Shown piece after piece: positions 14,698 to 35,359 of a DNA stretch of 64,000 nt (the stretch's first letter is position 1; each line of letters begins with the position of its first letter). A model generated the notes under the pieces. That model did not search any database. It saw nothing but the letters and a program-made list of their open reading frames with translations, and was not told where the DNA came from. Source of the stretch: an uncultured Acholeplasmatales bacterium. GTDB taxonomy: Bacteria; Bacillota_I; Bacilli_A; Acholeplasmatales; Anaeroplasmataceae. Location of the stretch: the NCBI GenBank assembly GCA_944324705.1, contig CALUXI010000005.1:7288-71287 (forward strand), written 5' to 3'. The position numbers and the translations under genes are program-made.

Positions 14698-14699
14698 AA

Positions 14700-15433: not shown

Positions 15434-15516
15434 TGTTTACCTCCTTATTTTTTATTATAAGTAAAGGGGCAAAAAGCCCCTAAACTCATCTAAAATTTTT
15501 TTAAATATTAAGTACA

Positions 15517-16380: not shown

Positions 16381-16411
16381 AAATTAAATTTTCCTTCCTT
16401 TTTTATAATTT

Positions 16412-16933: not shown

Positions 16934-17083
16934 TTTTTCCTCCTACGCTAGTTTTTACGGGTCTAGCTCCCTAGATTTCAAAATGGCTGTTTCCTTTCTT
17001 TTACGTTGTAAGAACAGCTTATCAACAATGTTGTCGTTTTTACGTTTCAGCAACCTTCAACAAGTATAAAAAAAGATGTTAAA

Positions 17084-17110
17084 CTTATAACACCTTGTTT
17101 TACCCGTCAA
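17084..17110 (-). promoter_or_regulatory. internal promoter ahead of the scaffold/capsid genes
   Basis: On the minus strand: TTGACG (17105-17110), 15-nt spacer, TGTTATAAG extended -10. The GTGTTATAA core is identical to the late promoter at 25490-25498. Confidence 0.35.
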
Positions 17111-17355
17111 ATTTTGATTTTAAGCAATGTTTTAACTTAATTAGTATAATTAATCATTTACTAAAATTTAAACAAAACAAGCCCAATTATTAAGCCTATA
17201 ACTAAACCAACAATAAAGGCTATACTAGCTAAATACAATTTATTTACAAAATCATCATTTATTTTTAACACCCCACTATTTATGATTTTCTACAACACTT
17301 ATTTTTTTACTCCTTTACAAAATTTAATTTATAGTTTAAAATAAAGTTAGATAAA

Positions 17356-17460
17356 GATATGATTTGAGGTAGACAAATGCCGCCGTCTACGCTAGTTTGA
17401 GATGCTGGGACGATTATGGGCGTTAAGTCACATAACACGGCGGTCCAGCCAAATCATATC
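17356..17460 (-). ncRNA. ~105-nt GC-enriched structured element immediately after the MuF gene
   Basis: 11-bp closing stem GATATGATTTG/CAAATCATATC. Internal hairpins GCTGGAC/GTCCCAGC and GTAGAC/GTCTAC. CCGCC/GGCGG pseudoknot potential. Confidence 0.35.
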
Positions 17461-17465
17461 TTTTT

Positions 17466-19130
17466 TTATTTAATTTTTTTGAAATTTCTCTCTTTTATAA
17501 ACTCATCTAACTTTTTGTCCTTAATGCTCGTATATCTAAAAGACTTAATTCTATTTTCTGCATTTGACATAACTATTCCTATTTGCATATATCTTTCTTT
17601 TTTGCTTAATGGAATTAATAATGTTAAATTATTTTTACCATATTTTTCATCATTATCATTAACATATACATTTTCAGGATTATCTAATGCATTTTTAATT
17701 ACATTTATATAATTTGGAACTTTTTCTAAAATCTCAGGATGTCTATCTAATGCGTGAATAACATTATTTTCATCTTTAATTAATGTAAAGTGATTACTAA
17801 AAGATATTTTTTTATTTTTTCTATAATGTTTAGTCCAATTAAATTTTGCTTTGAATTTGAATACATACCTATCTTCATTTTGTTTTAGAACTATATTTTT
17901 ATTGTTTAATGAACCACGTTCATAAATATTGCCCATGTTTCTATCATTTGATTCAAAACTTATAGCCCCACTTTTAAGTCCCTCACGTTCTTCAAGGCTT
18001 ATACGTGTTCGCCACTCAGCAACAGCATAATCATGTTCTTTACAATACTGCCAATATTCTTTTTCTAAAGCTTGTGCATTTTGACGAGCTTTTTTTCTTT
18101 CTTCTTTATTAGGTAATATAAGAGCTTTTCTTTTTTCCTTACGGATGTTGTTTTCCATATTTCTAATATAAGTTTCCTTGCTACGTTCATTTTGAATTCG
18201 CCTAGCTGGGTATTCCCTTGGCATAGTCATACCTTTTTCGTAACGAACTAAATGATGTCGGCAGTTATAACCTAAAAAACCGTGTGACATTGCTTCTTTA
18301 AGTGAATAATAATCTTTACCATCTGGTGTTTTACCTCTAGGTTCTGGCTCACCATTATAGTGATTATCTTTTATCTCTACACTACCTACTTCAGCATCTA
18401 AAATAAATATTTTACCTTGCCAAGGTTGACATCTAGAACTTGCATTAACATGTGATGTAGCTACTACATATGTAACACCATTATTTTTTAGCTTTTTTAT
18501 ATCCTTTACTTGTTCCTCGTATCTAACTTGCATTTCGGCTAAATTTCTTACAGACATTCGTCTGCCACGCCTATCACGAAGAACTACATTTAATCCTGCT
18601 AGTCTTATTATTTCTTGATTAACTCTTTTTTGATAATCTTCAATAAACATTTGAGAATAGCCGGTTTCCCACGTTGTAAAAAAATCACGAATATTTTTTA
18701 CTGCTCCTTCTTCTAAATTGTCGCCTAATTCAATATCTCTACTATCTCTCATACCAGTTAAACCTAAACTAATAATTAAGCTTTTACCATTAGCTTTAGG
18801 CACAATACCTGTAATAGATTTATAGCTTAATGCATAATACGGATTTTTCTTTTTCTTTGCTTCGTTTAAGAGTTTAGCTGTTATATCATTATACCAACGC
18901 ATAAATGATCCTTTTAAACCTATTTCAGTTTTACTTATTAAACTAGAATCTGCATCGTGATCTTGAAGTTGCTTTATGCAATCATTAATGATTTGTCTAG
19001 CCTGATTGCCTATCATTTCTTTTTGAAGAATGCTTGTGACAGCAGTTGATAGTAGTTGCTTTAATTTGGTATTGGCATCTTCTATTATCTCTACAATTAC
19101 ATAATCATCATTGTTGTCATTAACTGGCAT
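17466..19130 (-). CDS. MuF/SPP1 gp7-family head morphogenesis protein with a C-terminal extension
   Basis: 554 aa with the FLGYNCRHHL motif. Start is coupled to the portal stop (TAATG). About 150 extra C-terminal aa. Confidence 0.65.
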   Translation of the reverse strand: MPVNDNNDDYVIVEIIEDANTKLKQLLSTAVTSILQKEMIGNQARQIINDCIKQLQDHDADSSLISKTEIGLKGSFMRWYNDITAKLLNEAKKKKNPYYALSYKSITGIVPKANGKSLIISLGLTGMRDSRDIELGDNLEEGAVKNIRDFFTTWETGYSQMFIEDYQKRVNQEIIRLAGLNVVLRDRRGRRMSVRNLAEMQVRYEEQVKDIKKLKNNGVTYVVATSHVNASSRCQPWQGKIFILDAEVGSVEIKDNHYNGEPEPRGKTPDGKDYYSLKEAMSHGFLGYNCRHHLVRYEKGMTMPREYPARRIQNERSKETYIRNMENNIRKEKRKALILPNKEERKKARQNAQALEKEYWQYCKEHDYAVAEWRTRISLEEREGLKSGAISFESNDRNMGNIYERGSLNNKNIVLKQNEDRYVFKFKAKFNWTKHYRKNKKISFSNHFTLIKDENNVIHALDRHPEILEKVPNYINVIKNALDNPENVYVNDNDEKYGKNNLTLLIPLSKKERYMQIGIVMSNAENRIKSFRYTSIKDKKLDEFIKERNFKKIK

Positions 19131-20680
19131 TAATTGCTACCACCAAACATACTATCAAAAGCACCATTTGTTGCACTACTATCTCGCTCATCATTTATTC
19201 TTTCTATTTCTGCATCAACTTCTACCTCTGACCAATCAGTATGTATTGATTTAATAGCTGTTTTTAAACTAATTAATCCTGCTTGATATTGTTGCATTAC
19301 AAGTGACTGATTTTGTACTTTATTGATAATAGAGCTAGGGTCAAACACAACAAATAGACGAGTTTCTGTAAATCCTAATTCAGTAGCTATATCATTTAGC
19401 ATTTTATTAAGCTCATCTTTTAATAAAGCTCTTTTTTCTTTAACTGTATTAGCTGTGATATCTGATAAGTAATCAACTTCAGTTGCTGTTCTTTGTGCTC
19501 CACCAATTAAGGTAGGATCAAAGTCTAATATTGATAAACCACATCTAATACACACTTTAGCTTCAGCTTCTTCTAGTGATAACTTCCACTGATCTGCTCT
19601 TAGATCAAATTGCACTTTATCAATTGGCGCTTTTTTATCAATGTTATTTGTTTCATCTTGAAATGGAGTCATAAATGAATAATCAAGTTGTGTCACTTTA
19701 TTTCTTTTTAATAAACCATTGTTTACTTGATTATAACGTGGTAGTAAAACTCTACCTCTACCGATATACTTATCGATTTCTTGATAGGTCATAGAGTTTT
19801 CAAGTGCCATCATAAAACCTGTAGCATTTATAAATTGTGATTCACCAATATCAGTGTATCTTGCTAGCTTATTAACTGCCGTGTTCTTAAATCGATACAC
19901 ACCTAGTGAATTAATAGCTTTAGGCTTATTAATTTCAATGTCACCTATTTGTTCTTTTATTTTACTTGGAATATTATCTACTTCTAACTTATACCTCTTA
20001 ACTTCCTTTTTTAGCAGTCCTATTTGTGAGCCCCAGATGTTTTTTACAACATTGTATTCAACATAAGGTGTTTTTACTCCATCCCTCATTTTGTAAAAAC
20101 GATGCTCTAAAAATAAAAAACTTGAATAAGAGTCTTCGCCTTCAAACATATTCTTAAATAAAAATGCTTCATATATTTCTCCATTAACTTCTCTCTTGAT
20201 GATATATCTGCCAAGTGGATATACATCAATAGTCATTTTATTGCCACTATCTTCTTCAACAAGATTCGTAGAAACGACTGCCTCTCCACGTGCTAGTACA
20301 TCTGATTCCATTTTCATAATCGAATTAGAAAAATCAATGATTGCATCTTTTACATTTGAAACATCTTCATCATTTTCTCCTTCGATAGATATATTACCTA
20401 CTATCTTCGAAATTAAAATATTAGCTATAACTGGGCACGTTTTAGAATTAAGGCTCTGATAATGTATCATCGGGACAAATCCCATCGCCCATTGATTAGC
20501 AAGTAAATTATTATAAATAGCTCTTCTTTCATATGGTTCAAACATTATAAGATATATTTCATCTTCTATTCCTTTGGCTTCTGGTAAGGTTTTAAGCATT
20601 TGACGTGAATTTAAAGGTAGATAATCTTGTTCATTTAAACCGAGCGCATCATATATTGGCTTATTTTCAATATTTGACAT
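19130..20680 (-). CDS. portal protein
   Basis: 516 aa, between the terminase and MuF genes; GAGGAGG RBS. Confidence 0.6.
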   Translation of the reverse strand: MSNIENKPIYDALGLNEQDYLPLNSRQMLKTLPEAKGIEDEIYLIMFEPYERRAIYNNLLANQWAMGFVPMIHYQSLNSKTCPVIANILISKIVGNISIEGENDEDVSNVKDAIIDFSNSIMKMESDVLARGEAVVSTNLVEEDSGNKMTIDVYPLGRYIIKREVNGEIYEAFLFKNMFEGEDSYSSFLFLEHRFYKMRDGVKTPYVEYNVVKNIWGSQIGLLKKEVKRYKLEVDNIPSKIKEQIGDIEINKPKAINSLGVYRFKNTAVNKLARYTDIGESQFINATGFMMALENSMTYQEIDKYIGRGRVLLPRYNQVNNGLLKRNKVTQLDYSFMTPFQDETNNIDKKAPIDKVQFDLRADQWKLSLEEAEAKVCIRCGLSILDFDPTLIGGAQRTATEVDYLSDITANTVKEKRALLKDELNKMLNDIATELGFTETRLFVVFDPSSIINKVQNQSLVMQQYQAGLISLKTAIKSIHTDWSEVEVDAEIERINDERDSSATNGAFDSMFGGSN

Positions 20681-20697
20681 TAAATTACCTCCTCGTA

Positions 20698-20925
20698 TTA
20701 TAGTTTGCTTAATTCAGCCTGTAAATCTCTTCTCTCTTTTTCTAACTGTTTTAATTGAGCATGCAATTTGTCTTGTTTTGCAATGTTTATTGCATAATTT
20801 CTATCCTTAATCGGATTTAATTTACTAGCTTCCTTTTCTAATTGTTTGATTTTAGCAAACACATCATTTATTTGTCTAGAATTCTCTGATAATTTCATTT
20901 TGATTTGATTCACTGTCATTGGCAT
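20698..20925 (-). CDS. small coiled-coil phage protein
   Basis: 75 aa, between the terminase and portal genes. Confidence 0.35.
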   Translation of the reverse strand: MPMTVNQIKMKLSENSRQINDVFAKIKQLEKEASKLNPIKDRNYAINIAKQDKLHAQLKQLEKERRDLQAELSKL

Positions 20926-20942
20926 TCAATTTCACCTCCTCC

Positions 20943-22346
20943 TTAAATTGCTTTTACTGCATATTTTGTCGCATCTATCATATGGTCATTGCCATCAATA
21001 GGCTTATTTGTCTTTTCATCTATCATTAAACTTAATGTTTCAACGATTAACATATCATCATCGCCAAGCATTCTAAAATTAGGGTGCTCATAGCTTTTCT
21101 TACTTGGAATAGTTAACGGGTCAACATACCCAGCATTTATGGTTATAAAATAATCAGGAACCGTATAAACATTTTGAAGCCTACGCATATCAAGTATTAC
21201 ATCTTTTTGCCCAACTGACATCGCATGATATTTAGTTGAGTTATTAAACTCAAGCATCATATCTTGGCTAGCACTATCTACGATAATTCTAATATCTAGA
21301 ACAGCTCCCAATTTGTAATACCATAGCCAGTAATCAAGCCAAGCCTCCATTAACTTAACTTGAATTGTAGGTGCTAAAGGACTATGCCCCCAATTAGCAG
21401 GATCATAATAATATCCTGGTAACCTTACAATTCTACCCATTGTAGTAATACATAAAATTGATAGTGTGGTTGCATCTATGATAGTACCAACATCACATCC
21501 AACTATAATTCTTGATACTCTTTCTATTGGATAAAATGCAAACTTCTTTATATCAATAACGTGCTTATTAACATCAAACATCGGATAGCATAAACCATCT
21601 GTCCCTACTACTTCTCCTAGGAATATGTTTTGATATTCTTTAAAATTTCGTTTTTTAGTGATTTCTGCTTCTTCGTAAAGTTCATCTCGTAGTATTCCTT
21701 TTGGCACTTGTAAGTAGGTAGAATGGTGAATCACCCTATCTTTTCTTTGATAGTGATATTCAATGTTAAGCCAGTGATTAAGTTCAGGCTTAGGGTTTGC
21801 AGTTCTAAAAACAACAAATCCATCAAATTTATAATCTTGATTAGAACGCATACAAGATAGAAGTATGCTTTGTATATCACTAGCTTTTTTAAACTCCTGT
21901 GTCTCTTCAAACCATATGTATTTTATATATCCTTTAGCAAACGTTATTGATTTTAATTTAGTAGGGTCATCACAACCATCAAATCTTATATATTGTGGGG
22001 TATCACTGTTTGGTAAATAGATTAATCTTTTGGGTACTCTTTGACGTTTCCATAAATGATTAACATCAAGCTTATCAATAGCTCTTTGCACTTGTTCTAT
22101 AACTGAACCCTCTAAACTTGTAGCTGTCATTCTTAATGCTAGTGCATGACTAATAATGCCACGTTCCCTATCTCGCATTATTCCAAGCACTAACTCTTCA
22201 GCAGTAAAGTAAGATTTCCCACTAGCACGCCCACCTTTCAAATCATAGTAGGTGTATTTTTTATTAGCTATATCAACATGTATTTGCCAAAATGCAGGAA
22301 GTATTAAATTTGATATATCTACCTTAGTCTTCCTTTGAACCTTCAT
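20943..22346 (-). CDS. terL: terminase large subunit (PBSX-like family)
   Basis: Walker A GGRASGKS near the N-terminus, and a C-terminal nuclease-like region. ATG at 22346 follows AAGGTG. Confidence 0.8.
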   Translation of the reverse strand: MKVQRKTKVDISNLILPAFWQIHVDIANKKYTYYDLKGGRASGKSYFTAEELVLGIMRDRERGIISHALALRMTATSLEGSVIEQVQRAIDKLDVNHLWKRQRVPKRLIYLPNSDTPQYIRFDGCDDPTKLKSITFAKGYIKYIWFEETQEFKKASDIQSILLSCMRSNQDYKFDGFVVFRTANPKPELNHWLNIEYHYQRKDRVIHHSTYLQVPKGILRDELYEEAEITKKRNFKEYQNIFLGEVVGTDGLCYPMFDVNKHVIDIKKFAFYPIERVSRIIVGCDVGTIIDATTLSILCITTMGRIVRLPGYYYDPANWGHSPLAPTIQVKLMEAWLDYWLWYYKLGAVLDIRIIVDSASQDMMLEFNNSTKYHAMSVGQKDVILDMRRLQNVYTVPDYFITINAGYVDPLTIPSKKSYEHPNFRMLGDDDMLIVETLSLMIDEKTNKPIDGNDHMIDATKYAVKAI

Positions 22347-22884
22347 TTTTAGCACCTTGTTCTTCTAATTTTTGTTTTATGTCATCTACAAACTCGATAC
22401 TACCTATCTTGTTAAGTTCATCATTTAAGTTCTTCATATTTAAGTCAAGACCTTTCTCAATAAATTTATCATCGTAATTTCTCAAGAGCATAGCACATGC
22501 TCTTTCATTTGGCGGGTAGTAATGTTCGACTACTTCTTGATGAACTATGACTCCATTCTTTCTTATTATTTTTGATTCGGTTTCTTTATAACCTAAAGCT
22601 TGTTTGAGTAAGCTAGCTTTGATTTCTAAAACAAGTTGTCGTGCGCCCGTGCGTAAAGCCTCGTTTAAATCGCTGTGCTCATTTTTCCAACGGTGCAACG
22701 TAGAAACATTAACACCTAAAACATCTGCTATTTCTTTATTAGTAGCACCTAATTTGACCCAATTTTTAATATTACTGAGATAAGGCTTAACATTATTTTC
22801 ATAACTAGATTTCTTAGATTTATTATGATTAACATCAGTTAGCATTCGATTTATTTGAGCATCTTTTTCAAGTACTTCTGACAT
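22324..22884 (-). CDS. terS: terminase small subunit (HTH)
   Basis: HTH segment NKEIADVLGVNVSTLHRWK; overlaps the terL start. Confidence 0.6.
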   Translation of the reverse strand: MSEVLEKDAQINRMLTDVNHNKSKKSSYENNVKPYLSNIKNWVKLGATNKEIADVLGVNVSTLHRWKNEHSDLNEALRTGARQLVLEIKASLLKQALGYKETESKIIRKNGVIVHQEVVEHYYPPNERACAMLLRNYDDKFIEKGLDLNMKNLNDELNKIGSIEFVDDIKQKLEEQGAKNEGSKED

Positions 22885-22962
22885 AATAATTAAGCCTCAC
22901 CTTCTTTCTTTTATTTTTAATTTTCTTTCTTAATATTACCTTTAATTAATAATTAAATATAT

Positions 22963-24072
22963 TTATTTAATATTACTTAGTAATTTATTAATTATATTAT
23001 TATTTAAATATTCCCAAGGGTATTTATTGTTACTAAAGTGACCGTAAGAAGCTAATGTTGAATAACTAGTAATATCTTTTAGTTTTAATTCTTCAATCAT
23101 ATTCTTTGGCGTAAAATCAAAAGTTTTTAAAACTGCATTATAAATCTTTCTAGCATTTACTTTATTAGTTCCAAAAAACTCAATGTTAATACTTACTGGT
23201 TCTGATTTACCAATGCAGTAAGCTACAGATACTTCACATCTTTTAGCCAAATTAGCAGTTACTATTGCTCTAGCAACATACCTAGCATAATAAGCACCAC
23301 TTCTATCAACTTTACTAGGGTCTTTACCACTAAAAGCTCCACCACCATGATGTGCTAAACCACCATATGTATCAACCATTAACTTTCTGCCTGTTAAACC
23401 ACTGTCAGCATCAGGACCACCTACTAAAAAAATACCAGTAGGATTAATTAATATTTGTGCATCTTTGTAAAAGTTGGTATCTATAACTTTACTGATACAT
23501 TCACTAATAATTAATTCTTTTAAAACATTTAGATCTATTTCTTTTTTAGTTTGAGTTGATATAACTATAGTTGTTACTTTTATAGCTTTGTTATTTCGAT
23601 ATAAAACTGATACTTGGCATTTGCCATCTGGAGCTAATAATTCAGGATACATATGTCTTACTTCTTCCATTTGCACTGATATTTTTCTTGCTAAAATGTA
23701 AGGTAAAGGTAGCATTTCTTCTGTTTCATCCGTTGCATATCCATACACTATCCCTTGGTCACCAGCACCATCTAGATCTACCCCTTTAGCAATATCAGGA
23801 CTTTGAATAGTGATGTTTTTTATTATTTCAAATGAGGATTTATAACCTATTTCATTTAATTTTTCTCTTACGATTTTGTCATAATCTAAATTGGCTTTAG
23901 TGGTAATCTCACCAAGTAAATATACTTGATGCTGTTTAATTGCTGTTTCAATTGCCACTCTTGAATTTTTATCTTGTTTTAGACATTCATCTAAAATAAC
24001 ATCACTTATTTGGTCACATACTTTATCTGGATGACCTCTAAATACTGATTCACTAGTTATTATTTTTTCCAT
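22963..24072 (-). CDS. metK: S-adenosylmethionine synthetase (phage-encoded MetK)
   Basis: GHPDKVCDQISD, GAGDQG and GGGAFSGKDPSKVDRS motifs. The ATG lies 1 nt after the methyltransferase stop codon. Confidence 0.9.
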   Translation of the reverse strand: MEKIITSESVFRGHPDKVCDQISDVILDECLKQDKNSRVAIETAIKQHQVYLLGEITTKANLDYDKIVREKLNEIGYKSSFEIIKNITIQSPDIAKGVDLDGAGDQGIVYGYATDETEEMLPLPYILARKISVQMEEVRHMYPELLAPDGKCQVSVLYRNNKAIKVTTIVISTQTKKEIDLNVLKELIISECISKVIDTNFYKDAQILINPTGIFLVGGPDADSGLTGRKLMVDTYGGLAHHGGGAFSGKDPSKVDRSGAYYARYVARAIVTANLAKRCEVSVAYCIGKSEPVSINIEFFGTNKVNARKIYNAVLKTFDFTPKNMIEELKLKDITSYSTLASYGHFSNNKYPWEYLNNNIINKLLSNIK

Positions 24073-24073
24073 T

Positions 24074-25308
24074 TTAAACACTTATTAATCCTTTCTCTCT
24101 TTCTTCTTTTATGATTTCAAGTTCGCTAAGTTTATAATTCTTACCCTCTCGAATTAAATAGCAATCATCTATATTTTCTTTTGATTGAGCATATCTTTTA
24201 ACGATAACATCAGTGTATCTTTCATCAAGTTCCATTGTATAGCAAATTCTATCTAGTTGGTCACTTGCTATTAAAGTGCTACCAGAACCGCCAAATAAAT
24301 CAAGCACAATTTCACCTATCTTACTAGAATTACTTATAGCCTTACCAACTAACTCTAGTGGTTTCATCGTTGGATGTAAACTGTTGCTTTTAGGTTTTGA
24401 AACTTCCCACACTGTATCTTGAGTTCTATCATCGATAAAATAATGACTTGCCCCCTCTTTCCAACCATAGAGAATAGGCTCGTGTCGCCAATGATAATCT
24501 TGTCTTCCTAAAACAAGTGAATTCTTAACCCAAATTAAGCATTCTGCAATTTTAAAACCTGCTTCTTTAAATGCACGCCTAAAATTAAGTCCTTCACTAT
24601 CGGCATGACAGCAATATATAACCCCCCCGATTTGATATTTTCAAACATATTTTTAAATGCAGATAGTAAAAAATTATAGAAGTCACTATCACTTTGCTTA
24701 TCGTTTTGGATTTTCATACCGTCTTGTCCTTCGTAATCCACATTGTACGGAGGGTCAGTAAAAATTAAATCTGCTAAATTATTATTCATTAATTCTTTGA
24801 CATCATCAGCTAGAGTTGAATCACCACACATTACTCTATGTTTGCCTAGAACGTAAATGTCGCCCTTCATAGAAAAAGGCACTTCAGGAATTAGTGCCTC
24901 TTCATCAAAATTATCATCTACAACTTCTTTTTGTAAAAGCTCCGTTAAATCATCAAATCCAAATTGTGTCATGCCTATATTATCAAGCTCTTTTAGCTCA
25001 GACACTAACTTATCAAAATCCCACTCAGCCAATTCAGACGTTTTATTATCGGCAATTCTAAATGCTTTTATTTGTTCTTCAGTTAAATCATCTGCTACGA
25101 TACATGGTACTTCTTTAAAACCTAACTTCTTACTAGCTTTTAATCTTGTATGACCTGCTACTATGACGTTGTTTTTATCAACAATAATAGGAACTTTAAA
25201 ACCAAATTCACGGATAGAATTAGCTACTGCCTCTACTGCATCATCATTTTTTCTAGGGTTATTTTCATAAGCTATTAAATCATTAATATTTTTAAAAGTT
25301 ATTTCCAT
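24074..25308 (-). pseudogene. ParB-like nuclease domain / DNA methyltransferase fusion, interrupted by a frameshift in a G7 tract
   Basis: N-part has a ParB-like domain plus DPPYN. C-part has HPTMKP and FGGSGST. Adding one G at 24622-24628 restores a continuous 411-aa frame (..SGGVIYCCHADSEGLNFRRAFKEAGF..). Confidence 0.8.
24622..24628. repeat. C7/G7 homopolymer at the methyltransferase frameshift site
   Basis: acCCCCCCCga on the plus strand; unusual in this AT-rich sequence. Confidence 0.9.
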
Positions 25309-25330
25309 AAAAATCCTCACTTTTTTGCAA

Positions 25331-25359
25331 ATAAAAAAGAGCTTTTATACAGAGCTCTT
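25331..25359 (-). terminator. hairpin plus T-run in the leader just upstream of the methyltransferase start
   Basis: AAGAGC/GCTCTT stem followed by TTTTTTAT on the minus strand, ~20 nt before the RBS GAGGA. Confidence 0.4.
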
Positions 25360-25489
25360 GTAACTGTTAGGAATTAAAATCGATTAAATAAAAATAAATA
25401 GATCGTTGAAAGCAATGAAAACTAAAGTTTAAATTTAAAGAAGTCATCAACTTAATTTTTATAGATTAATTCCAAAAATCTACGATACT

Positions 25490-25534
25490 ATTATAACACA
25501 TATCATTGTTAGAAACTGTTAGAAAGTGTTAGAA
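25490..25534 (-). promoter_or_regulatory. late promoter: three 10-bp-phased TTCTAACA repeats plus an extended -10
   Basis: TGTTAGAA at 25507, 25517 and 25527 on the plus strand. TGTTATAAT on the minus strand at 25490-25498. Lies directly downstream of the sigma-like gene. Confidence 0.5.
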
Positions 25535-25557
25535 CTTTCAGTAATTTTTAACAAAAA

Positions 25558-25962
25558 TTAATGATTTAAACTCATTTTACATAATTTTTTATATGCTTGA
25601 GATTTAATCTGCCTCACATATCCATATGAGTAGTTCATCTTTTGGCTTATTTGAAATAGTGTCAACCCTTGAACATAGTATAACTGAATAATAATTTTAT
25701 CATCAGTTTTAGTTAAATGTTCTAAATACTCACCAATTCTATTTTCTATTTCAGTTATTTCTGTTTGTTTGTGTCGCCACTCACGTATTAGCTGACAATA
25801 TTGTGCATACTTTTCCTCAAGATCAGATGGAACACCACCAATAGTTCGTTCCCTAAATTGTGGACTTGATAAAAATCTACAGTTATCTATTTTATTCTCA
25901 AGTACTATCAATTCAAATTTCTTTGTTTTTAAATCTTTAACTAAAACTTCAAATTCACTCAT
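25558..25962 (-). CDS. sigma-70 region-4-like / ArpU-like late transcription regulator
   Basis: C-terminal HTH LTLFQISQKMNYSYGYVRQIKSQAYKKL. Lies upstream of the packaging genes. Confidence 0.55.
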   Translation of the reverse strand: MSEFEVLVKDLKTKKFELIVLENKIDNCRFLSSPQFRERTIGGVPSDLEEKYAQYCQLIREWRHKQTEITEIENRIGEYLEHLTKTDDKIIIQLYYVQGLTLFQISQKMNYSYGYVRQIKSQAYKKLCKMSLNH

Positions 25963-25965
25963 TAT

Positions 25966-26130
25966 TTATTTTTCCTTTCCCTCTGCAACTTTTATGTTAA
26001 TAGCCTCTTGCAAATCCTTTATTAACTCTTGATAACCTTTAACATCAGTGTTTTTAAAAAAATCTAAAACTATTTTTTTGGTGTTATTTCCAGATACTTC
26101 TAGTAATTTAATTAAAGTGTTTTTTTTCAT
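25966..26130 (-). CDS. hypothetical phage protein (54 aa from the ATG at 26130)
   Basis: AAGGAAG RBS before the internal ATG; the ORF-track start at 26166 is unlikely. Confidence 0.35.
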   Translation of the reverse strand: MKKNTLIKLLEVSGNNTKKIVLDFFKNTDVKGYQELIKDLQEAINIKVAEGKEK

Positions 26131-26429
26131 ATTTTTATTCTTCCTTTTTTTCTTTCCCAAAATCAATTAAAACACAAGTTAAAGCGTGGATTTAACTTGC
26201 ACTAATTTAAAAAAAGACCATACTAATAGGAGGATTTTTCACACCTCTTCTTTCTTTTTTATTTTTTTATTTAAATTGCCACGCTCAATTTAAACCATAG
26301 TAATTTAGATAAATATAAATATGACTAAAAATATTACTAATACTATAATTACACTAATAATTAAATGTATAAATACACTAATTAATGTGTATTTAATATT
26401 ACTTAGTCTATAATGTTTATAATTTTTAA

Positions 26430-26702
26430 CTAACACAAATTACCACCGAAAGAAACTAATTTCTCAGCATATAAGCCATCTTGTAAAATGCGCCCTTTAA
26501 TGCCCACCATTTGATTAATAAGCAATTTATTAATATCTGGCACATCAAATATCTTTTCTTTCTTAAAAACAAGCTTATCAAATTTTACTTTAATTTTGTG
26601 GTCGGTTTTGTCAACATTAGTATAAACCAAAGTCATATTCCTACCGAATAAAGTCTCTTCAACCTCAATACATCTGCCAACTATCATAAAATAACTATAC
26701 AT
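26430..26702 (-). CDS. hypothetical phage protein (90 aa)
   Basis: ORF in the early operon. Confidence 0.35.
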   Translation of the reverse strand: MYSYFMIVGRCIEVEETLFGRNMTLVYTNVDKTDHKIKVKFDKLVFKKEKIFDVPDINKLLINQMVGIKGRILQDGLYAEKLVSFGGNLC

Positions 26703-26703
26703 A

Positions 26704-27123
26704 TTAATCTAACTCTAACTCCTTTAAAGTATATTCTTTTAACTTTTCAAATTCTCGAAGATAATCAGTCTCATCATGAATAAAATAGTCTTCTTTGTAA
26801 TTTAGGTTAAATTTATCACACATAGGAATAATAATTTCTTTTTCAAATTTATCTATTGCTTTTCGAATATATTTACAAATAGTTTCTAAGCAATCAAAAC
26901 TTTGCTTATAATAAAGCGTATCCATGTTCTTAAAATCAAAATATAGCGTTAATGTTGATCTAGTTATTTCACTAGTGCTAATATCTTGATATATATCTAT
27001 TTCAAAAAATGGTAAATCTTTATTACTAAATCTATATTCTCTTTCCTCATCACTATAGGGAATATTATTTTTTAGCAAATAGAACCCACGTTGATATAAA
27101 TAATAAGCTACTTCATTAATCAT
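26704..27123 (-). CDS. hypothetical phage protein (139 aa)
   Basis: Start/stop overlaps with neighbouring genes. Confidence 0.4.
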   Translation of the reverse strand: MINEVAYYLYQRGFYLLKNNIPYSDEEREYRFSNKDLPFFEIDIYQDISTSEITRSTLTLYFDFKNMDTLYYKQSFDCLETICKYIRKAIDKFEKEIIIPMCDKFNLNYKEDYFIHDETDYLREFEKLKEYTLKELELD

Positions 27124-27496
27124 TTTCTTGTGCCTCCTTTAATTTTTCTAAGATTGGACCTAAAACAGCTCTAAATTCTTCATCACTTAATGGTTCAACT
27201 CTATAAGCGTGGTCTTTAATGAATTTCAAAAAGTTTTCAATACGCTCTATATAGTTAAGATTTGCTTCTTTATCTTTTAGCCACGAAGAATGAGCAGTAT
27301 TTAGCCACACTTTAAAATCAACACAGATGTGATGTTTATTTGGGTATTCTTCGTTCATAAAACCTAATTCACCATAATCAGTAACTTTCATTAGAGCATT
27401 AGAACATAATAGATCTAAAAACTCTACTGCTTCGATAATATCTTCTTTACTCATTTTATCTATATCAAGATGAGCTGGTTTTATTTTTTCAGTCAT
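27116..27496 (-). CDS. hypothetical phage protein (126 aa)
   Basis: Start/stop overlaps with neighbouring genes. Confidence 0.4.
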   Translation of the reverse strand: MTEKIKPAHLDIDKMSKEDIIEAVEFLDLLCSNALMKVTDYGELGFMNEEYPNKHHICVDFKVWLNTAHSSWLKDKEANLNYIERIENFLKFIKDHAYRVEPLSDEEFRAVLGPILEKLKEAQEND

Positions 27497-27935
27497 ATAG
27501 CACCTTATCTAATTCCCTTTCTAAATTGTCTAAATCATATTTAAGCCTATTTAATTTATTCTTTTTGTATTTCCATTTTTGATTAAACTTATAACTGTTG
27601 TCAAAAGGTATGCCAAGTTTAAGTAAATTTTCTTCTACTTTATCGAATACAGATTTCATTATTTCTAAATCTTTCTTTACAACATCATCTATATTGACTA
27701 ATTCAAGCCAACATAACCCCAATTTACCATTGATATTAAAATCAGCTTTTGAGCTTTGATAAACAATTAAAACATCATATTCTCTATCATAGTAAGTATT
27801 TGCAGTGAATTTAAATTCTGTATAATCATAAGTGTTATTTTCAAGTTTTTGTTTATCATAGCCTAACATATAAAACTCATAATTAATTTTATTTCTAAAA
27901 TCATTTAGTTTCTTTAATACTTCTTCTTTATTCAT
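27489..27935 (-). CDS. hypothetical phage protein (148 aa)
   Basis: Start/stop overlaps with neighbouring genes. Confidence 0.4.
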   Translation of the reverse strand: MNKEEVLKKLNDFRNKINYEFYMLGYDKQKLENNTYDYTEFKFTANTYYDREYDVLIVYQSSKADFNINGKLGLCWLELVNIDDVVKKDLEIMKSVFDKVEENLLKLGIPFDNSYKFNQKWKYKKNKLNRLKYDLDNLERELDKVLYD

Positions 27936-27945
27936 TTAGTTTCTC

Positions 27946-28161
27946 CTAATAATCAAATAGTGTTGGTGCTTCTTTTTTAGCTTTTCTAGGCTTATATGTG
28001 TGTCCAAAGTTAAATACATCGATTTCATTAAATTCAAACATTTTACATTTATTTGGTCTACAAGCATTTTGTTTATTCATAACGATATTTAATTTATTAC
28101 AAGCACACATATCTTCTTCAACTTGAGTTGCATAACAACAATATCTACAATATTGTTTCAT
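27946..28161 (-). CDS. Cys-rich small protein (zinc-finger-like)
   Basis: CRYCCY..CAC..C..C pattern in 71 aa. Confidence 0.4.
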   Translation of the reverse strand: MKQYCRYCCYATQVEEDMCACNKLNIVMNKQNACRPNKCKMFEFNEIDVFNFGHTYKPRKAKKEAPTLFDY

Positions 28162-28476
28162 TTATTCATTCATATCCTCTATTTCTACAAAATTAAAATC
28201 GACTATTTTAAATTCCATATTTTTATCACAACAAAATATGCTACTTATCCAAACGGTATTATCTCTATTTAATTTTTTTATTTCCTTACCTTTATAGTTT
28301 TGCAAAATTAAATTGTGATTATCATAATAAATTCGTTGAAATTTATAATATGTTTTAGAAGCGTGTGTTCCATAATTTTCACATAGAAAAATTTTAAACC
28401 ATACTTTATGATTATAATAGTCTAAAATTTTATGCTTTTTTTTGAAAAATTTATTAACTATTTCAAATGGTGTCAT
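28162..28476 (-). CDS. hypothetical phage protein (104 aa)
   Basis: ORF whose start shares an ATGA overlap with an upstream small ORF. Confidence 0.4.
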   Translation of the reverse strand: MTPFEIVNKFFKKKHKILDYYNHKVWFKIFLCENYGTHASKTYYKFQRIYYDNHNLILQNYKGKEIKKLNRDNTVWISSIFCCDKNMEFKIVDFNFVEIEDMNE

Positions 28477-28716
28477 TCCGTTTTATCCTCCTTGAGCCAC
28501 CACGTTTTCTTGTAATCTTTTAATTTATAGGTGCCATCAAATGCAAAATCTCCAGCATCATCTAAATATAATGATATTGATATTTGTTTTTGTTTTTTAC
28601 CTCTAAACCTCTCATTTTTTTAATTTTAAGCCAAGTTTATACTTAGCCCTATATATTTATACGTTTTAACCTCTTTCGTGGCTCTACGTGGCTAAAACAA
28701 GCCTAAAATCAAATGT

Positions 28717-29106
28717 TTATAAGTTGCTATCAAATAAAGTCGGTTCGTTTAGTGCCATTTGATACTTTTGTTCTATTAACTTAGTTCTTTTGGCGTATTT
28801 AGCTAAATAGGCTTTGCGCCTTGCTATGTATTCCCTATAGTCCTCAAGACTTGCTATTTTATAACCAGTTTTATTTGATACTATGATGTGCTGTGTTGGA
28901 TCTAAGTTTGTATTTAATAACTCAACATCAGCTTCAATTTCTCTTAAATACCTTGTTGATTTATCATTCACGTTATAATAAGTCGGCAAGGCTCTTGCTA
29001 TTTGCTCTTTGGTTATATACTTGTTGTGTAACTCGATATCTTGGTAACACTCCATTAAAAAGTCATATAGCCTCCAGCTTCTTATTGTTGAACTTTCACA
29101 TTTCAA
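28717..29106 (-). CDS. hypothetical phage protein (129 aa)
   Basis: ORF in the early operon. Confidence 0.4.
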   Translation of the reverse strand: MKCESSTIRSWRLYDFLMECYQDIELHNKYITKEQIARALPTYYNVNDKSTRYLREIEADVELLNTNLDPTQHIIVSNKTGYKIASLEDYREYIARRKAYLAKYAKRTKLIEQKYQMALNEPTLFDSNL

Positions 29107-29121
29107 ATTTTTAACCCCCCT

Positions 29122-29355
29122 TTATGTATAAAGCCCGCTAGCAAACTTCGCTTGTTTACTAAGCTTTAATTTTTTGGGTCTTTTAGTCCCTATCACATCA
29201 ATGTATATTAAACGTTCATCATCTAGTCTATTTAAATTTGTTTCATCAATAAACAGTCTTACTTTCCTAACCATATGCGAGCCATCTATGCAAACGTGTA
29301 AAAAAGTTAAATTACAAAGCTTGTTTAAATAACTGCTTTTATCTTGTATTTTCAT
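29122..29355 (-). CDS. hypothetical phage protein (77 aa from the ATG at 29355)
   Basis: ATGA overlap with the upstream stop supports the internal start. Confidence 0.35.
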   Translation of the reverse strand: MKIQDKSSYLNKLCNLTFLHVCIDGSHMVRKVRLFIDETNLNRLDDERLIYIDVIGTKRPKKLKLSKQAKFASGLYT

Positions 29356-29519
29356 TTTTCTACAACATCCCCATTTTTGTAAATGCGGTATGTGCATAAA
29401 TCGCCCCAACGCTCACATTGCACCTCTAGGCATTCCCCAAAGTTATAAACCGCAATTAATTTGCTGTAAGTAATACCAGCTTTCTCAATTCTTTTTTTAA
29501 TTTCCTTAGTTATTTTCAT
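29352..29519 (-). CDS. hypothetical phage protein (55 aa from the ATG at 29519)
   Basis: Short ORF overlapping the end of the replisome organizer gene. Confidence 0.3.
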   Translation of the reverse strand: MKITKEIKKRIEKAGITYSKLIAVYNFGECLEVQCERWGDLCTYRIYKNGDVVEK

Positions 29520-30309
29520 TTTTAAATCCCTCCATAATTTCATTCATACCATCAACTTGCCAATCTTCTAAATCAATGTCTGATTTATTAGATTTAGCTT
29601 TTAAATAATTTTCATTCCAAATCCTAGCAATTGCTTTCCAGTCATTAATTTTATCTTTACCTACCATCCATCCATTTGAACTATAATGGTTATAAAATTT
29701 TACTGGGTCTATTTGCATTTCTTCTTCTTCGATAAATTTTCTTATTTCTTCTAAAGTTGGGATTGTTTCCTCATACTCCTTCTTTGAAGAAGAAGGATTC
29801 TTATATTCTTCTTCTATTTCTTTATTCTTATTTCTAGGAGCGTTACTTAACGTTTCTGTAGCGTTACTTGTAACGTTACATTCAAGCATTTTTTGCTTAT
29901 CTCGATACTTTTGAACACGTTTTTTTGTTTGTTCTCTAACATCGTCTAATGATTTAATTGACTGATATTTAGTCCAATTAGCCAAACAATAAACATTGTC
30001 TATAATTTCAATCATTTTATTTTTTTGAAACCAAGCAATAGCACATTTAACTTCTTCTGGTTCTCTATCAATCATCACAGCTATATCTTGATATTGATTT
30101 TCTAAATCAAATGGCAATTCTAAATTTTGGCTATCTACTAGCTTACCATCATCATTTGTTTTACCAGCCAAATCTAGAAGCTCAAACCAAATAGCAGTTA
30201 ATCTATCTCGGTAACTTGTTCCATCCGCTAATTTAGCTCTTTTAATTCTTTTAAAACTAGCACCATCAAATGTGCCAACCTTAAACTTTATCCATTTAAC
30301 TTCACTCAT
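29506..30309 (-). CDS. phage replisome organizer (N-terminal domain) with a DnaD-like C-terminus
   Basis: N-terminus VKWIKFKVGTFDGASFKRIKR..RDRLTAIWFELLDLAGK, typical of the replisome-organizer N-domain. C-terminal FYNHYSSNGWMVGKDKINDWKA. Confidence 0.7.
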   Translation of the reverse strand: MSEVKWIKFKVGTFDGASFKRIKRAKLADGTSYRDRLTAIWFELLDLAGKTNDDGKLVDSQNLELPFDLENQYQDIAVMIDREPEEVKCAIAWFQKNKMIEIIDNVYCLANWTKYQSIKSLDDVREQTKKRVQKYRDKQKMLECNVTSNATETLSNAPRNKNKEIEEEYKNPSSSKKEYEETIPTLEEIRKFIEEEEMQIDPVKFYNHYSSNGWMVGKDKINDWKAIARIWNENYLKAKSNKSDIDLEDWQVDGMNEIMEGFKNENN

Positions 30310-30980
30310 TATTTAAAACCACCTTTTTTCAAGCAAACCCTAGTTGGAATCCTAGTTGTTGAATAAACTAGAGATTGCATTTGTAGTTCATCTGATAACG
30401 CATCAGATAGATGCATTAAAAATATCTCATTACATTTATTTAAGTTCATATTTTTTAAATAAGTAATACATCCATTAAGCGATAAATGCGTATTTTTTTG
30501 TCGCCTAATTTTAGACCAATCTTCTATTTTTTCTAACAATTCATCAGAATAATTACACTCTATCATTATTTTATTAAATGGCGTTGTTAAAATCTTTTTT
30601 AAATCTTCTTTGTTAATAAAATTAATAAAGTCAGTAGCAAATAATAATCTCTCGTTATCTATGTTAAAAGTATAAGCATTACATTTGGCGTTGCCGTGAT
30701 TTACTGGTATAGCATTAACTAATATATCACCCGCTAAATAATCACTTTCTATTACTTTTACACCCCTTTTAATTAGGTCTTTTTTACTTAAAGCGTGGTC
30801 TTTATGATCGTGTGATATGGTGCAAAAACTAATATCATTTAAAGTTAAATTAAGCTCTAACAACTTTTTAACTATTAAATTAATACCAATGCCACACTCC
30901 AGCAAAACATTAATTCTATTGTTAAATCTAGCAAGGTAGCAGTTTCCAGAACTGCTACTTGCAAAGTTATAAATTTTCAT
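30309..30980 (-). CDS. MBL-fold metallo-hydrolase
   Basis: HDHKDH motif; usual partner of RecT modules. Confidence 0.65.
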   Translation of the reverse strand: MKIYNFASSSSGNCYLARFNNRINVLLECGIGINLIVKKLLELNLTLNDISFCTISHDHKDHALSKKDLIKRGVKVIESDYLAGDILVNAIPVNHGNAKCNAYTFNIDNERLLFATDFINFINKEDLKKILTTPFNKIMIECNYSDELLEKIEDWSKIRRQKNTHLSLNGCITYLKNMNLNKCNEIFLMHLSDALSDELQMQSLVYSTTRIPTRVCLKKGGFK

Positions 30981-30988
30981 AAAAACTC

Positions 30989-31945
30989 CTAAAAGTTATT
31001 AAATACATCATCGTTGTTTTCTTGATTGTAATTTTTAATAAAGTCATCAACATTAACTTTATTATTTGGTTCTTCTTTAACATCAGCTAACGCTTCTTTT
31101 ATTTGGGCTTGTTGCTCCTGAGTGATAGCCTTAATGTCAGTGTCCTTATACTCGGCATCCATATAATGCCTATTATTTAGGCTATCGCCGTAAGTTTCAT
31201 CTGCAGTATATGCATCACGCATTTCAATAGACATAACGCCCCACTTGCTTATTATTTGCCTTAAAAGTGTTTTAAAAGACATGTCGTCGAACGAGCGGTA
31301 CCAGAATGAACTATATTTCCACATATCTTTATCACTAACTTTGCCATCTTTAATTTGTTGATAAGCCGATGCGCTAAATGCTTGAGAATATGTGTCAGCG
31401 TGTTTTAACATCTTTTCTTTAGACCAATATAATGTCTTTTCAAAACCTGATGTTAACTTAATGTAGGCATAGTAGCCTACTACTTCTTTACTTAACCTTT
31501 CTTTATCATCCTCAATAAACTCTATTTTTGCTTCACCAGTTAATCTATCAAGCCCTTTATATTCTCCTTCACGTACTTCAATTACGTTTATAGCTTTATA
31601 CTGACCACTTCTAATTGCTAGTTGAACATACCCTTTATAACCTAGAATAAACTGAGCTTGACTAGTTCCAGTTTTCTTGTTCTTAAATGGTACTAAATAA
31701 TAGTGTCCTAATTGTGGTGATGGGCTTAGATTTAAAGCTTCGCCTATTAAAGCACCAGTTAATACTGAACTAGGTTCACATTCCTTTAATGCTGGATTAA
31801 CAGATACTGCACTGATAATTGATGCTGTAAATCTTTGGCACTTCACAGTATCTTGCAATGTGTTTTTTATTGCTGTTTGACTTGCTTTTGAATTTATAAA
31901 AGCACTAAAACTTTCTTTTTTAACTACTTGATTATTGTTTTGCAT
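30989..31945 (-). CDS. recT: RecT-family single-strand annealing recombinase
   Basis: 318 aa with GYKGYVQLAIRSGQYK-type core motifs. Confidence 0.75.
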   Translation of the reverse strand: MQNNNQVVKKESFSAFINSKASQTAIKNTLQDTVKCQRFTASIISAVSVNPALKECEPSSVLTGALIGEALNLSPSPQLGHYYLVPFKNKKTGTSQAQFILGYKGYVQLAIRSGQYKAINVIEVREGEYKGLDRLTGEAKIEFIEDDKERLSKEVVGYYAYIKLTSGFEKTLYWSKEKMLKHADTYSQAFSASAYQQIKDGKVSDKDMWKYSSFWYRSFDDMSFKTLLRQIISKWGVMSIEMRDAYTADETYGDSLNNRHYMDAEYKDTDIKAITQEQQAQIKEALADVKEEPNNKVNVDDFIKNYNQENNDDVFNNF

Positions 31946-31957
31946 TTTCTTACTCCT

Positions 31958-32128
31958 TTAAATCACTAATACACTATTTACATCTTTTAAACTTTTGTAA
32001 TAATTAACTATCACATCTAAATCGTTAAACTTACAAATTCTATAAAGTAATCTATCTTCTGTTTTATCAAATACTAAGTAGTATTTGTCCTCAGCTTTGG
32101 TGCTTATTAAAATATCTCTTTTAACCAT
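31958..32128 (-). CDS. unlisted 56-aa phage ORF
   Basis: ATG lies 6 nt after AAGGAG and fills the gap between the ATPase and recT. Product begins MVKRDILISTKAEDKYYLVFDK... Confidence 0.5.
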   Translation of the reverse strand: MVKRDILISTKAEDKYYLVFDKTEDRLLYRICKFNDLDVIVNYYKSLKDVNSVLVI

Positions 32129-32131
32129 AAT

Positions 32132-34078
32132 TTACTCCTTAACTAACTCTAATATATTTTTATTACTTACTACACGAGTAGCTATAATTTGGCTACCCAT
32201 ATTAACTATTTTATTTAAGCTGTTAGAACCTAAACTTTCGGCGTTATCTATTAAAATTGGCATATCTTTAACATTTGTTAACTCTTTAATTTTAGTTATA
32301 AATAAAGCCCCTAAATACTCTTTTAAGCCCCTATTTAATTGGTTGTAGGCTTTGCCATCTAATACCGGATAACATACTTCTTCAAGTCCTCCGTTAACTT
32401 GTTCTTTTAACATTTCAAACTCGATGCCAAAAGTTGAATAGGCTTTATCATTTATAGCTTTAATTCTTGTTTTAATATATTCATCGCATAATGTATAACT
32501 ACTTTCAGCATCATTTAACTGGCTTATTAATTCTTGTTTTTCTTTATCAGTTTTCTTATAAAGTTTTAAGTTATATTTAGCTTGCATTATTGGCTCTAAC
32601 TCTTTATTGATTTGGGCTAAATCATTAGCGTATTTAGTCTCAATTTCAACCTCTAAATTATTATGTTTTTCTTCTAACTTGTTTAATTCTTCTTTTAAAC
32701 TTAAATATATGTTTTTTAATGTGTTTGTGTCTTCGCTAATAGGGTTAAAAGGTTCGCCCTTAACTTTATCAAGGTTAGCCTCTTTTTTACTTAAATCGGC
32801 TTTTAAATCGCTTAAATCACTATTAGCACCATCTATTAATTCTAATAACTCATTTTTATCATTTGCCAATTTTTTAGTATCTTCTATTAAACTAGCTTTT
32901 TGATTATTTAAATTTGTTATTTTAGCTTTTAAATTATAAATTTTTTCTTGCTGTTTTTCCTCGTTTAAAATGTAGCCACAATTTGGGCATTTATCTGGGT
33001 TATTAATTACTTCAGCAAGTTCAAGTTGTAATTTTTCTAACTCATTAACTAAACTTTCATTTTTAGTTTTATTAAATTTGCCCTTCTCATTAATAATCTT
33101 TAATTTGTTTTCGTAATCTTTTAAAACAATCTCGCAACTATGCAATTTTTCTTTACTACCACTTACCAGCTCCATAGCCTCATTTAACTTAATATTTTGG
33201 TTAGCTTGGTAATCATTAGTTTTACTATTTAAATAAGCTCTTTCAGCCTCAATTACTTTCTTTTGTAATTCTATTAAATCAGCATTACTTCCGCTTAAAT
33301 CGCCTTGTTTTAAAGCCTCTATACTTGTTTTTCTAACCTCAAACTCTTTTAATTTATCTTCATCAAAATTAATGTCTAAACCCTCTAAAATACCCTGTTT
33401 AACATCAATTTGTTTTTGTAAATCTAAAATAATAGCTTTGTAATTTTTACGTGCTAAATCTAATCGACCATCATATTTAAATACATCATCTTTTAAGCTG
33501 TTAAATTCTGGATGTTCTCTAGCTAAATCCTCAAAGCTAATATCACCAGTAAAATATATTACTAGTTCTCTTAATAGCTTATAATCAATCTTAGCAAACG
33601 CATAAAATACATCAGTTATTAAAGCTATAGCATTAAACTTACTATCATTAACTTTAATATCTTTTAACTTATCTAAATTAAAAGCTACATTTAAAGCACT
33701 ATCAAATTCAGATATATTTTTACATTTAACACCATTAAAATAATAATCAGTGGTTCTACCCTTAAATACTTCCTCATTTGTTCCCCTAGTTTTTTGGTAA
33801 ACGTTGTAGAACTTAAATCCAAACTCCTGACCTAAATCAGTTGTTAAATTAACACTAGCTATAGCACGTTCATTGTCGATCGGAATCAAACTAGTGAACT
33901 CACTCTCATTTTTGCCTTGGTCGCTAAATATTCTTTTAGCTAACAAATAACTAATAGCGTTTAATGTGTTAGTTTTACCAACCCCATTATCAGCCTCAAA
34001 CACGTTTAATTTTGGTGCTAAATCGTAGGTGACGTGTTTGATATTACCCACGTTTTCAATTTCTAATTTTTGAATCAT
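32132..34078 (-). CDS. SbcC/RecF-like AAA ATPase with a long coiled-coil
   Basis: N-terminal Walker A (ADNGVGKTN), a central CxxC within the coiled-coil, and C-terminal signature/Walker B-like motifs. Confidence 0.6.
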   Translation of the reverse strand: MIQKLEIENVGNIKHVTYDLAPKLNVFEADNGVGKTNTLNAISYLLAKRIFSDQGKNESEFTSLIPIDNERAIASVNLTTDLGQEFGFKFYNVYQKTRGTNEEVFKGRTTDYYFNGVKCKNISEFDSALNVAFNLDKLKDIKVNDSKFNAIALITDVFYAFAKIDYKLLRELVIYFTGDISFEDLAREHPEFNSLKDDVFKYDGRLDLARKNYKAIILDLQKQIDVKQGILEGLDINFDEDKLKEFEVRKTSIEALKQGDLSGSNADLIELQKKVIEAERAYLNSKTNDYQANQNIKLNEAMELVSGSKEKLHSCEIVLKDYENKLKIINEKGKFNKTKNESLVNELEKLQLELAEVINNPDKCPNCGYILNEEKQQEKIYNLKAKITNLNNQKASLIEDTKKLANDKNELLELIDGANSDLSDLKADLSKKEANLDKVKGEPFNPISEDTNTLKNIYLSLKEELNKLEEKHNNLEVEIETKYANDLAQINKELEPIMQAKYNLKLYKKTDKEKQELISQLNDAESSYTLCDEYIKTRIKAINDKAYSTFGIEFEMLKEQVNGGLEEVCYPVLDGKAYNQLNRGLKEYLGALFITKIKELTNVKDMPILIDNAESLGSNSLNKIVNMGSQIIATRVVSNKNILELVKE

Positions 34079-34340: not shown

Positions 34341-34372
34341 TTTACCTCCAATATTTTTATTTTTTAAAACTC

Positions 34373-34391
34373 TGTATTAATATTTAAAACA
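34373..34391. promoter_or_regulatory. operator copy 2 (TGTATTAATATTTAAAACA)
   Basis: 18/19 identical to the perfect palindrome at 34836-34854. Confidence 0.5.
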
Positions 34392-34397
34392 AAATAT

Positions 34398-34805: not shown

Positions 34806-34835
34806 CTTTTCCTCCTTGTTTATTAATTTAAAACT

Positions 34836-35304: not shown

Positions 35305-35359
35305 AAACCTAAACTTTTTTTATTTTAAGGTTTAATTAAAAACAACGGGGAGGGACAAC

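Follow-up and report, generated by a model that had tools for sequence, protein, structure and literature searches.

A ParB-domain DNA methyltransferase gene interrupted at a G7 run in a temperate phage of wall-less gut Acholeplasmatales

A split methylase gene in a late-operon cassette

The window, by which we mean the whole 64-kb stretch of DNA analysed here, belongs to a host genome of 1.64 Mb with 27% GC, which RpoB places among uncultured Acholeplasmatales/Anaeroplasmataceae-like bacteria, and contains a whole prophage of 34.4 kb (4014..38448), integrated at tRNA-Ser(GCU). The prophage is young and otherwise intact: its 86-nt att repeats differ at one position in 86, its genes are tightly packed, and a frame-switch scan found no split gene in it other than the one described here. 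That gene, on the minus strand, encodes a ParB_N + N6_N4 methylase, and its frameshift site is a run of seven G residues on the gene strand (C7 on the plus strand) at 24622-24628. The 5’ reading frame (24535..25308, minus strand) encodes 257 aa from an ATG at 25308, or 261 aa (24535..25320) if counted from a GTG, and comprises ParB_N, a linker and motif IV, FTDPPYNV. Past the run, the 0 frame continues for 33 wrong-frame codons and ends at a TAA (24535-24537). The 3’ part (24074..24621, minus strand) lies in the -1 frame and carries HPTMKP and motif I, DLFGGSGST. It is free of stops from just before the run to a TAA at 24074-24076, and its earliest start codon, a GTG at 24412, gives an ORF of 112 aa (24074..24412).

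The codons across the run are AAA TCG GGG GGG TTA, and its exact flanks on the two sides are ATGTTTGAAAATATCAAATC and TTATATATTGCTGTCATGCC. With one G added, translation gives an open frame of 411 aa with FTDPPYNV, LHPTMKP and DLFGGSGST; this G8 form reads K-S-G-G-V-I-Y-C-C-H-A-D at the run and stays open to the stop at 24074, so that all 183 codons past the run (411 minus 228) remain open. A change of one G in either direction in this in-ORF run thus toggles the methylase frame by translation, with G7 off and G8 on. An earlier note on this DNA had described the gene as split into ORFs at 24535-25320 and 24074-24412, and had claimed that one extra G would yield an uninterrupted 411-aa protein with both DPPYN and HPTMKP...FGGSGST; both ORFs and the Pfam pieces agree with the first statement, and translation bears out the second. 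The run is the sole G/C run of at least 7 nt in the window and in the prophage. Dinucleotide shuffles of the window contain on average 0.39 such runs, with at least one in 30 of 100 shuffles.

Each part of the gene accounts for a part of one protein. In Pfam searches the 5’ piece matches ParB_N and the start of N6_N4_Mtase, and the 3’ piece matches the end of N6_N4_Mtase: ParB_N (PF02195) covers residues 10-91 of the N-terminus (E 1e-9; ParB-type PHROGs match there too), and positions 2-49 and 149-220 of PF01555 divide over the 5’ and 3’ pieces. The order of the motifs is that of the beta class, with FTDPPYNV (IV) in the 5’ frame preceding DLFGGSGST (I) in the 3’ frame. Residues 1-398 of the 411-aa read-through protein match phrog_498 (‘DNA methyltransferase’) with E 2e-164. 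The search for homologues gave 8000 matches with a best identity of 74%, and intact homologues measure 404-419 aa (120 of the 120 listed); unlike their single ORFs of about 410 aa, the frame here is continuous only with G8. Among solved enzymes, beta-class methylases for adenine and N4-cytosine (DpnA-type, CcrM) come closest, together with ParB domains for the N-terminus. No restriction endonuclease lies beside the gene; the genes around it are those for a late regulator, MetK and terS. By these matches the gene encodes a phage orphan enzyme that combines ParB_N with a beta-class DPPY methylase, and its predicted specificity is N6-adenine, a type that the DPPY motif makes probable.

The methylase is the first gene behind a putative late promoter. 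Directly upstream of it and its partner lies a gene for a late transcription regulator of the sigma-70 region-4/DUF1492 type (25558..25962, minus strand; identified by Pfam and by phrog_36, ‘transcriptional regulator’), and the order from there is a 237-nt region with repeats and an extended -10, the methylase, MetK, terS and terL. The candidate promoter (25490..25534, minus strand) consists of three TTCTAACA repeats (25534-25527, 25524-25517 and 25514-25507) and the extended -10 element TGTTATAAT (25498-25490). This block is 87% identical in a sister phage (L041), where it stands directly before terS. A generic sigma-70 scan gives no call at 25490..25534, which is expected for an activator-dependent promoter; that the segment works as a late promoter is inferred. 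The second gene, metK (S-adenosylmethionine synthetase; 22963..24081, minus strand), is intact, with three MetK Pfam domains, and its GTG start and the methylase stop overlap by 8 nt. The gene for the terminase small subunit, terS (22324..22884, minus strand; phrog_309), is the first packaging gene beyond the pair.

The window at 22963-25473 was compared with loci of other phages. Sister phages (loci L041-L050) have a near-identical regulator and the same repeat promoter, and in them the regulator is followed straight by terS, without the methylase and MetK. Unrelated phages (L051-L054) carry an intact methylase-MetK pair, always just past a sigma-like late regulator. Because the sister phages are without the pair and unrelated phages have it intact, the two genes are, judging from gene order, a mobile accessory cassette heading the late operon. 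Its role is presumably to methylate progeny DNA before packaging, with MetK supplying the fuel, as would fit both its position and the proposal made for ParB-methylase fusions (PMC12704722); we likewise infer late expression and an anti-restriction role for the methylase.

Some further features of the region deserve mention. The TTCTAACA element occurs three times here and four times in the sister phage, in each case followed by TGnTATAAT. A leader of about 150 nt follows the promoter, with a weak hairpin and T-run at 25333-25359 (minus strand) immediately ahead of the ribosome-binding site of the methylase. The leader of the sister phage is different but also has a hairpin and T-run, in front of terS, and the element may serve antitermination-type control. 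Elsewhere in the window, a gene graveyard adjoins attL (2641-3244, minus strand). There a GNAT gene (Acetyltransf_3), without its N-terminus and with a frameshift at an A7 run, lies together with a short fragment of another gene; an aldo-keto-reductase-like C-terminal fragment lies near it at 3476-3730.

Copies of the G7 allele and origin of the run

The same interruption recurs outside the window. The identical 257-aa off product was found in five contigs (NCBI, Logan, ENA), and the DNA was read for three of these (L038, L039 and L040), each from a further metagenome assembly with G7 and the same split; these represent at least three other samples and two studies. L038 and L039 come from two samples of a single project and match the window at 100% identity. 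L040, from another project and with a coverage of 6, is 99.5% identical: relative to the window, its methylase gene has one synonymous SNP, four further SNPs lie in early genes, and one patch has recombined. The run length is therefore G7 in four of the four assemblies read, the window included, which represent two slightly diverged lineages; about two independent populations are sampled in this way, and consensus assemblies hide minority alleles. No pair of ON and OFF alleles was found among the sampled copies. The exact G8 (ON) protein is absent from a collection of 15 billion proteins although the OFF fragments are in it, and the homologues found there reach 74% identity at most. A variable-gap pattern between the exact flanks of the run had no match, at any run length, in IMG/VR or the JGI metagenomes, and near-identical copies of the methylase were not found in 60 related genomes (best DNA identity 70%) or among GenBank phages (below 75%).

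About 25 homologues were compared at the frameshift site. All keep Gly-Gly there, coded as GGT GGA, GGC GGA or GGT GGT, and none has a G run, so the run is, as far as this comparison reaches, lineage-specific. The nearest homologue encodes the same K-S-G-G residues as AAA TCA GGT GGT, and therefore three synonymous third positions appear to have become G in this lineage. Such changes go against the codon usage of the genome, in which GGG makes up 8.8% of Gly codons, TCG 1.8% of Ser codons and G 7.7% of third positions, and in which only 4 of 1560 Gly-Gly pairs are GGG-GGG. The rarity of these codons makes the run improbable by chance, which could mean that a mutable run was selected. The run does go against usage, but it is lineage-specific, 80 homologues show no enrichment of such runs, and a similar one lies in a host methylase gene that is dead (see below).

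The family as a whole was surveyed in 80 homologues from IMG/VR. The gene has 0.037 G/C runs of at least 7 nt per kb and its flanks have 0.025; as this is no clear excess at the 80 loci, the idea that ParB-methylases are enriched in G runs across the family was rejected. Individual homologues in IMG/VR do have in-frame runs at other places: a G9 run (4232-4240) over Q-G-G-G in L118, a G7 run (881-887) over M-G-G in L126, and a C7 run (2154-2160) over the catalytic D-P-P-Y itself in L133. Separately, many related IMG/VR phages have a C7-C8 run at a comparable distance, about 2.9-5 kb, downstream of the methylase: L076, L077, L079, L082, L090, L093, L097, L099, L107 and L110.

Long G runs are also a feature of the host. 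Its genome (G000) has six G/C runs of at least 9 nt where 0.3 are expected, and seven of at least 8 nt where 1.8 are expected. Four of the C9 runs are G9 runs of the opposite strand that lie inside the spacers of TTGACA-N-TATAAT promoters (C1:76996-77024, C2:49461-49490, C14:6081-6109 and C4:74625-74633, all on the minus strand), and these promoters precede signal-peptide or lipoprotein-like genes and one gene for an IclR-like regulator. This arrangement, with G8, G9 or G10 in spacers of 14-19 nt, is present in 6 of 10 genomes of the genus, in which a reversed control pattern gave no match, and paralogous promoters with identical flanks differ in the length of their G run. Together these runs look like a poly-G ‘phasome’ in uncultured Anaeroplasmataceae-like bacteria. 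As a side observation, a G7 run at C2:82596-82602 occupies the Shine-Dalgarno position of a gene for a small zinc-ribbon membrane protein, 5 nt before its ATG, and a change in its length would alter the spacing between ribosome-binding site and start codon.

Two host genes carry G runs inside their coding sequence. One encodes a surface lipoprotein of 1044 aa (C4:18797-21929; lipobox LVSC, Listeria-Bacteroides repeats) and is split by a G7 run at C4:21105-21111. In a sister species (G006), at 97% identity, the run is G6 between identical flanks and the frame of 1056 aa is intact, and nearly all of the members listed from its 90% cluster of 74 are 1044 aa and intact. The difference between G6 in the sister species and G7 here argues that G runs slip in this clade. 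The other is a gene for a Dam-like adenine methylase (KWAGGK, D12-class; C1:~1240-2060, minus strand) with a G10 run (C1:2019-2028) over the Gly codons of its KWAGG motif. This gene is not in frame, has lost one base at each of two further places (T3 to T2) and is dead, and the orthologue in another sister species (G002) is intact, with GGT GGT codons. The dead gene thus indicates that G runs over Gly-Gly in this genome can simply mark or cause gene death. MutS and MutL are both present and intact in the host genome, and loss of mismatch repair as the cause of hypermutable runs was therefore rejected.

Inherited loss, switching and other readings

The reading that we favour, with modest confidence, is that the methylase was knocked out by slippage from G8 to G7 and that the lesion was inherited, reversible in principle but without programmed switching. 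The conserved K-S-G-G-V stretch would in this phage lineage have come to be written TCG GGG GGG GTT, a G8 run, from which strand slippage at replication would have taken out one G. The G7 allele that resulted would part the catalytic DPPY from the SAM-binding FGGSGST and so turn the enzyme off. The null allele would then have been inherited by the sampled phage copies, because it is the only state in every one of them, and the phage can apparently do without the methylase, since its sister phages have no part of the cassette. As the lesion lies in a mutable run and the rest of the gene is undamaged, a +1 slip could restore the methylase. This course of events would imply a G8 ancestor, and a loss that was neutral or tolerated.

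Some of the same features could instead point to true phase variation, in which a selected G run flips often between G8 (ON) and G7 or G9 (OFF) and the assemblies have caught a majority OFF state. A lysogen population could in that case release progeny of both kinds, methylated and unmethylated, and so hedge its bets, since some hosts restrict unmethylated DNA and others methylated DNA. The change of three synonymous third positions to G relative to the nearest homologue, against a strong AT codon bias, would be explained by selection of the run, and the excess of G/C runs of at least 9 nt in the genome, the G8-G10 promoter spacers across the genus and the slipped lipoprotein gene all place the methylase in a clade where such a mechanism would be at home; the lack of secondary damage in the 3’ part of the gene and the G8/G9/G10 precedent in Bordetella phages fit as well. 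However, the four assemblies read, one of them diverged, are all G7 and no ON protein was found, the run is short (7-8 nt) in a host that has MutS and MutL, and runs of at least 7 nt are not clearly enriched in the 80 homologues. Moreover, the methylase stands behind an activator-dependent late promoter and is therefore probably silent in lysogens, where most replication takes place and where a slip would be neutral, so that most slippage would escape selection. On balance we consider phase variation possible but rather unlikely.

No evidence for toggling at an appreciable rate, or for selected switching, was seen in the assembled data. The earlier note had presented the run as a slipped-strand ON/OFF switch. 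Its view of the origin and reversibility of the lesion is supported, given the one-base change, the codon-defying run and the G runs of the clade, whereas the claim of a switch in operation is weakened by the G7 state of all copies and the absence of the G8 protein. That note had also named a uniform G7, with no variants and no methylation motif traceable to the enzyme, as an outcome that would speak against it, and in the assembled data the run is uniformly G7, which leans against active switching.

A wider form of the switching idea takes the run for an evolved switch in a temperate phage of wall-less gut Acholeplasmatales and for one case of a recurrent, convergent design in phage ParB-methyltransferases, and we hold it to be doubtful. 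In this view, slips between G8 and G7 would let each lysogen lineage release virions that are either methylated or unmethylated, which would hedge against classical and methylation-dependent restriction in the next host, and runs would have arisen over different Gly-Gly codons in different phage lineages. We found no report in the literature of homopolymer switches in ParB-methylases.

Recoding would turn the argument around. G7 would then be the working allele. Either -1 ribosomal frameshifting on G GGG GGG or slippage during transcription would yield the 411-aa protein, and a truncated protein with ParB only would predominate. Formally, the run does form an X XXY YYZ heptamer in the 0 frame (TC G GGG GGG TTA), a -1 slip on it yields exactly the 411-aa protein, and both the stability of G7 in all assemblies and the intact downstream frame would be accounted for. 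The signals that usually go with such a site are lacking, however: the fold of the 102 nt downstream is not significant (z = -0.98), no AGGAGG (Shine-Dalgarno-like) sequence lies upstream of the run, and the slippery site is found in no homologue compared. A cognate tRNA-Gly(CCC) is present, so GGG is no hungry codon, and the ParB-methylase family offers no precedent; G:C-rich A-site heptamers are not known to shift efficiently. Given the lack of structure and conservation and the presence of this tRNA, a programmed -1 frameshift was rejected as unlikely, and we regard recoding in general as very improbable.

Weaker still is the idea, put forward in the earlier note as equally plausible, that the true sequence is G8, that the methylase is intact and that systematic homopolymer error broke the frame. 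Homopolymers are classic sites of indel errors and a second gene (C4:21105) is likewise split at G7, but the same G7 recurs in separate assemblies from at least three other samples and two studies, and the two G7-split genes require opposite corrections, +1 for the methylase and -1 for the lipoprotein gene. Elsewhere in the assembly, one G8 run (C3:48537) and one G7 run are resolved in frame, and five C9 runs and one C10 run are resolved too. A frame-switch scan of the whole genome gave about 10 candidate split genes among roughly 1600, of which 3-4 are at homopolymers, few in view of the approximately 1545 A/T runs of at least 7 nt. The GNAT gene, which that note had cited as a parallel case, is indeed broken in the A7 run at 2871-2877: one added A joins its two frames, and the Acetyltransf_3 match crosses the junction. 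It is nonetheless a true remnant, without about 20 N-terminal profile positions and set among other gene fragments, and gives no sign of systematic error. With this remnant and the genome-wide scan, systematic homopolymer error was rejected; the G7 null allele is real DNA, and sequencing error is essentially excluded.

For annotation, this means that the locus is best entered as a (pseudo)gene with a genuine frameshift, without any correction of the break as an assembly error, and that the phage DNA is expected to be without the methylation mark of its relatives. More generally, homopolymer-broken methylases in prophages of uncultured gut bacteria are real alleles and spread from sample to sample. 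The host clade itself shows the hallmarks of a poly-G ‘phasome’, with runs in promoter spacers, in a lipoprotein gene (G6 or G7) and in a Dam-like gene that is dead (G10); so far as we know, this has not been described in the Anaeroplasmataceae-like group, and these host loci at least match the methylase break in interest. Should switching prove true after all, the methylase would provide a phage-borne case of epigenetic bet-hedging.

Comparison with known systems

As it stands, the finding is an ordinary one and belongs with the homopolymer-interrupted methylases already known from phages and bacteria. In its outward form the run resembles a dnaX-type -1 frameshifting site, as it is an identical-base heptamer in the right frame and is followed by a short 0-frame product. 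It differs from that type in that neither a stimulatory hairpin nor an internal Shine-Dalgarno sequence is present, the site is not conserved among homologues, and the heptamer is made of G only.

The domain architecture of the enzyme is that of the fusions between a ParB-CTPase fold and an N6_N4 methyltransferase, which are enriched in prophages and for which an anti-defence role has been proposed (PMC12704722). Those fusions are intact single ORFs, unlike the gene described here, and that survey does not treat homopolymer runs.

Phasevarions, as known for Type III mod and Type I hsdS genes of Haemophilus, Neisseria, Helicobacter and Moraxella (for example ModM, PMC6902483), share with the present gene the principle that the length of a repeat within the ORF shifts the frame of a methyltransferase. 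They are, however, chromosomal restriction-modification genes of the host that are expressed in growing cells, whereas ours is an orphan enzyme of a prophage late operon. Their repeats are also longer or of several units, with documented variation and regulons, whereas no variation was seen here.

The closest precedent is the run in the bpm adenine methyltransferase of the Bordetella phages. In the three records that we checked, this run is G8 in BPP-1 (the annotated CDS), G9 in BIP-1 and G10 in BMP-1, so it varies among sibling phages and both ON and OFF states are seen, whereas only OFF is seen here. The GC-rich genome makes a run less surprising there, the Bordetella enzyme has neither a ParB domain nor a MetK partner, and its run lies before motif I, in contrast to the position after motif IV found here. 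The two cases nevertheless agree in essential points. Both concern a beta-class (DPPY ... FxGxG) orphan methylase of a temperate phage, both have the run over x-G-G-V (CCG GGG GGG GTG for M-P-G-G-V there, TCG GGG GGG GTT here), and in both G8 is the in-frame state.
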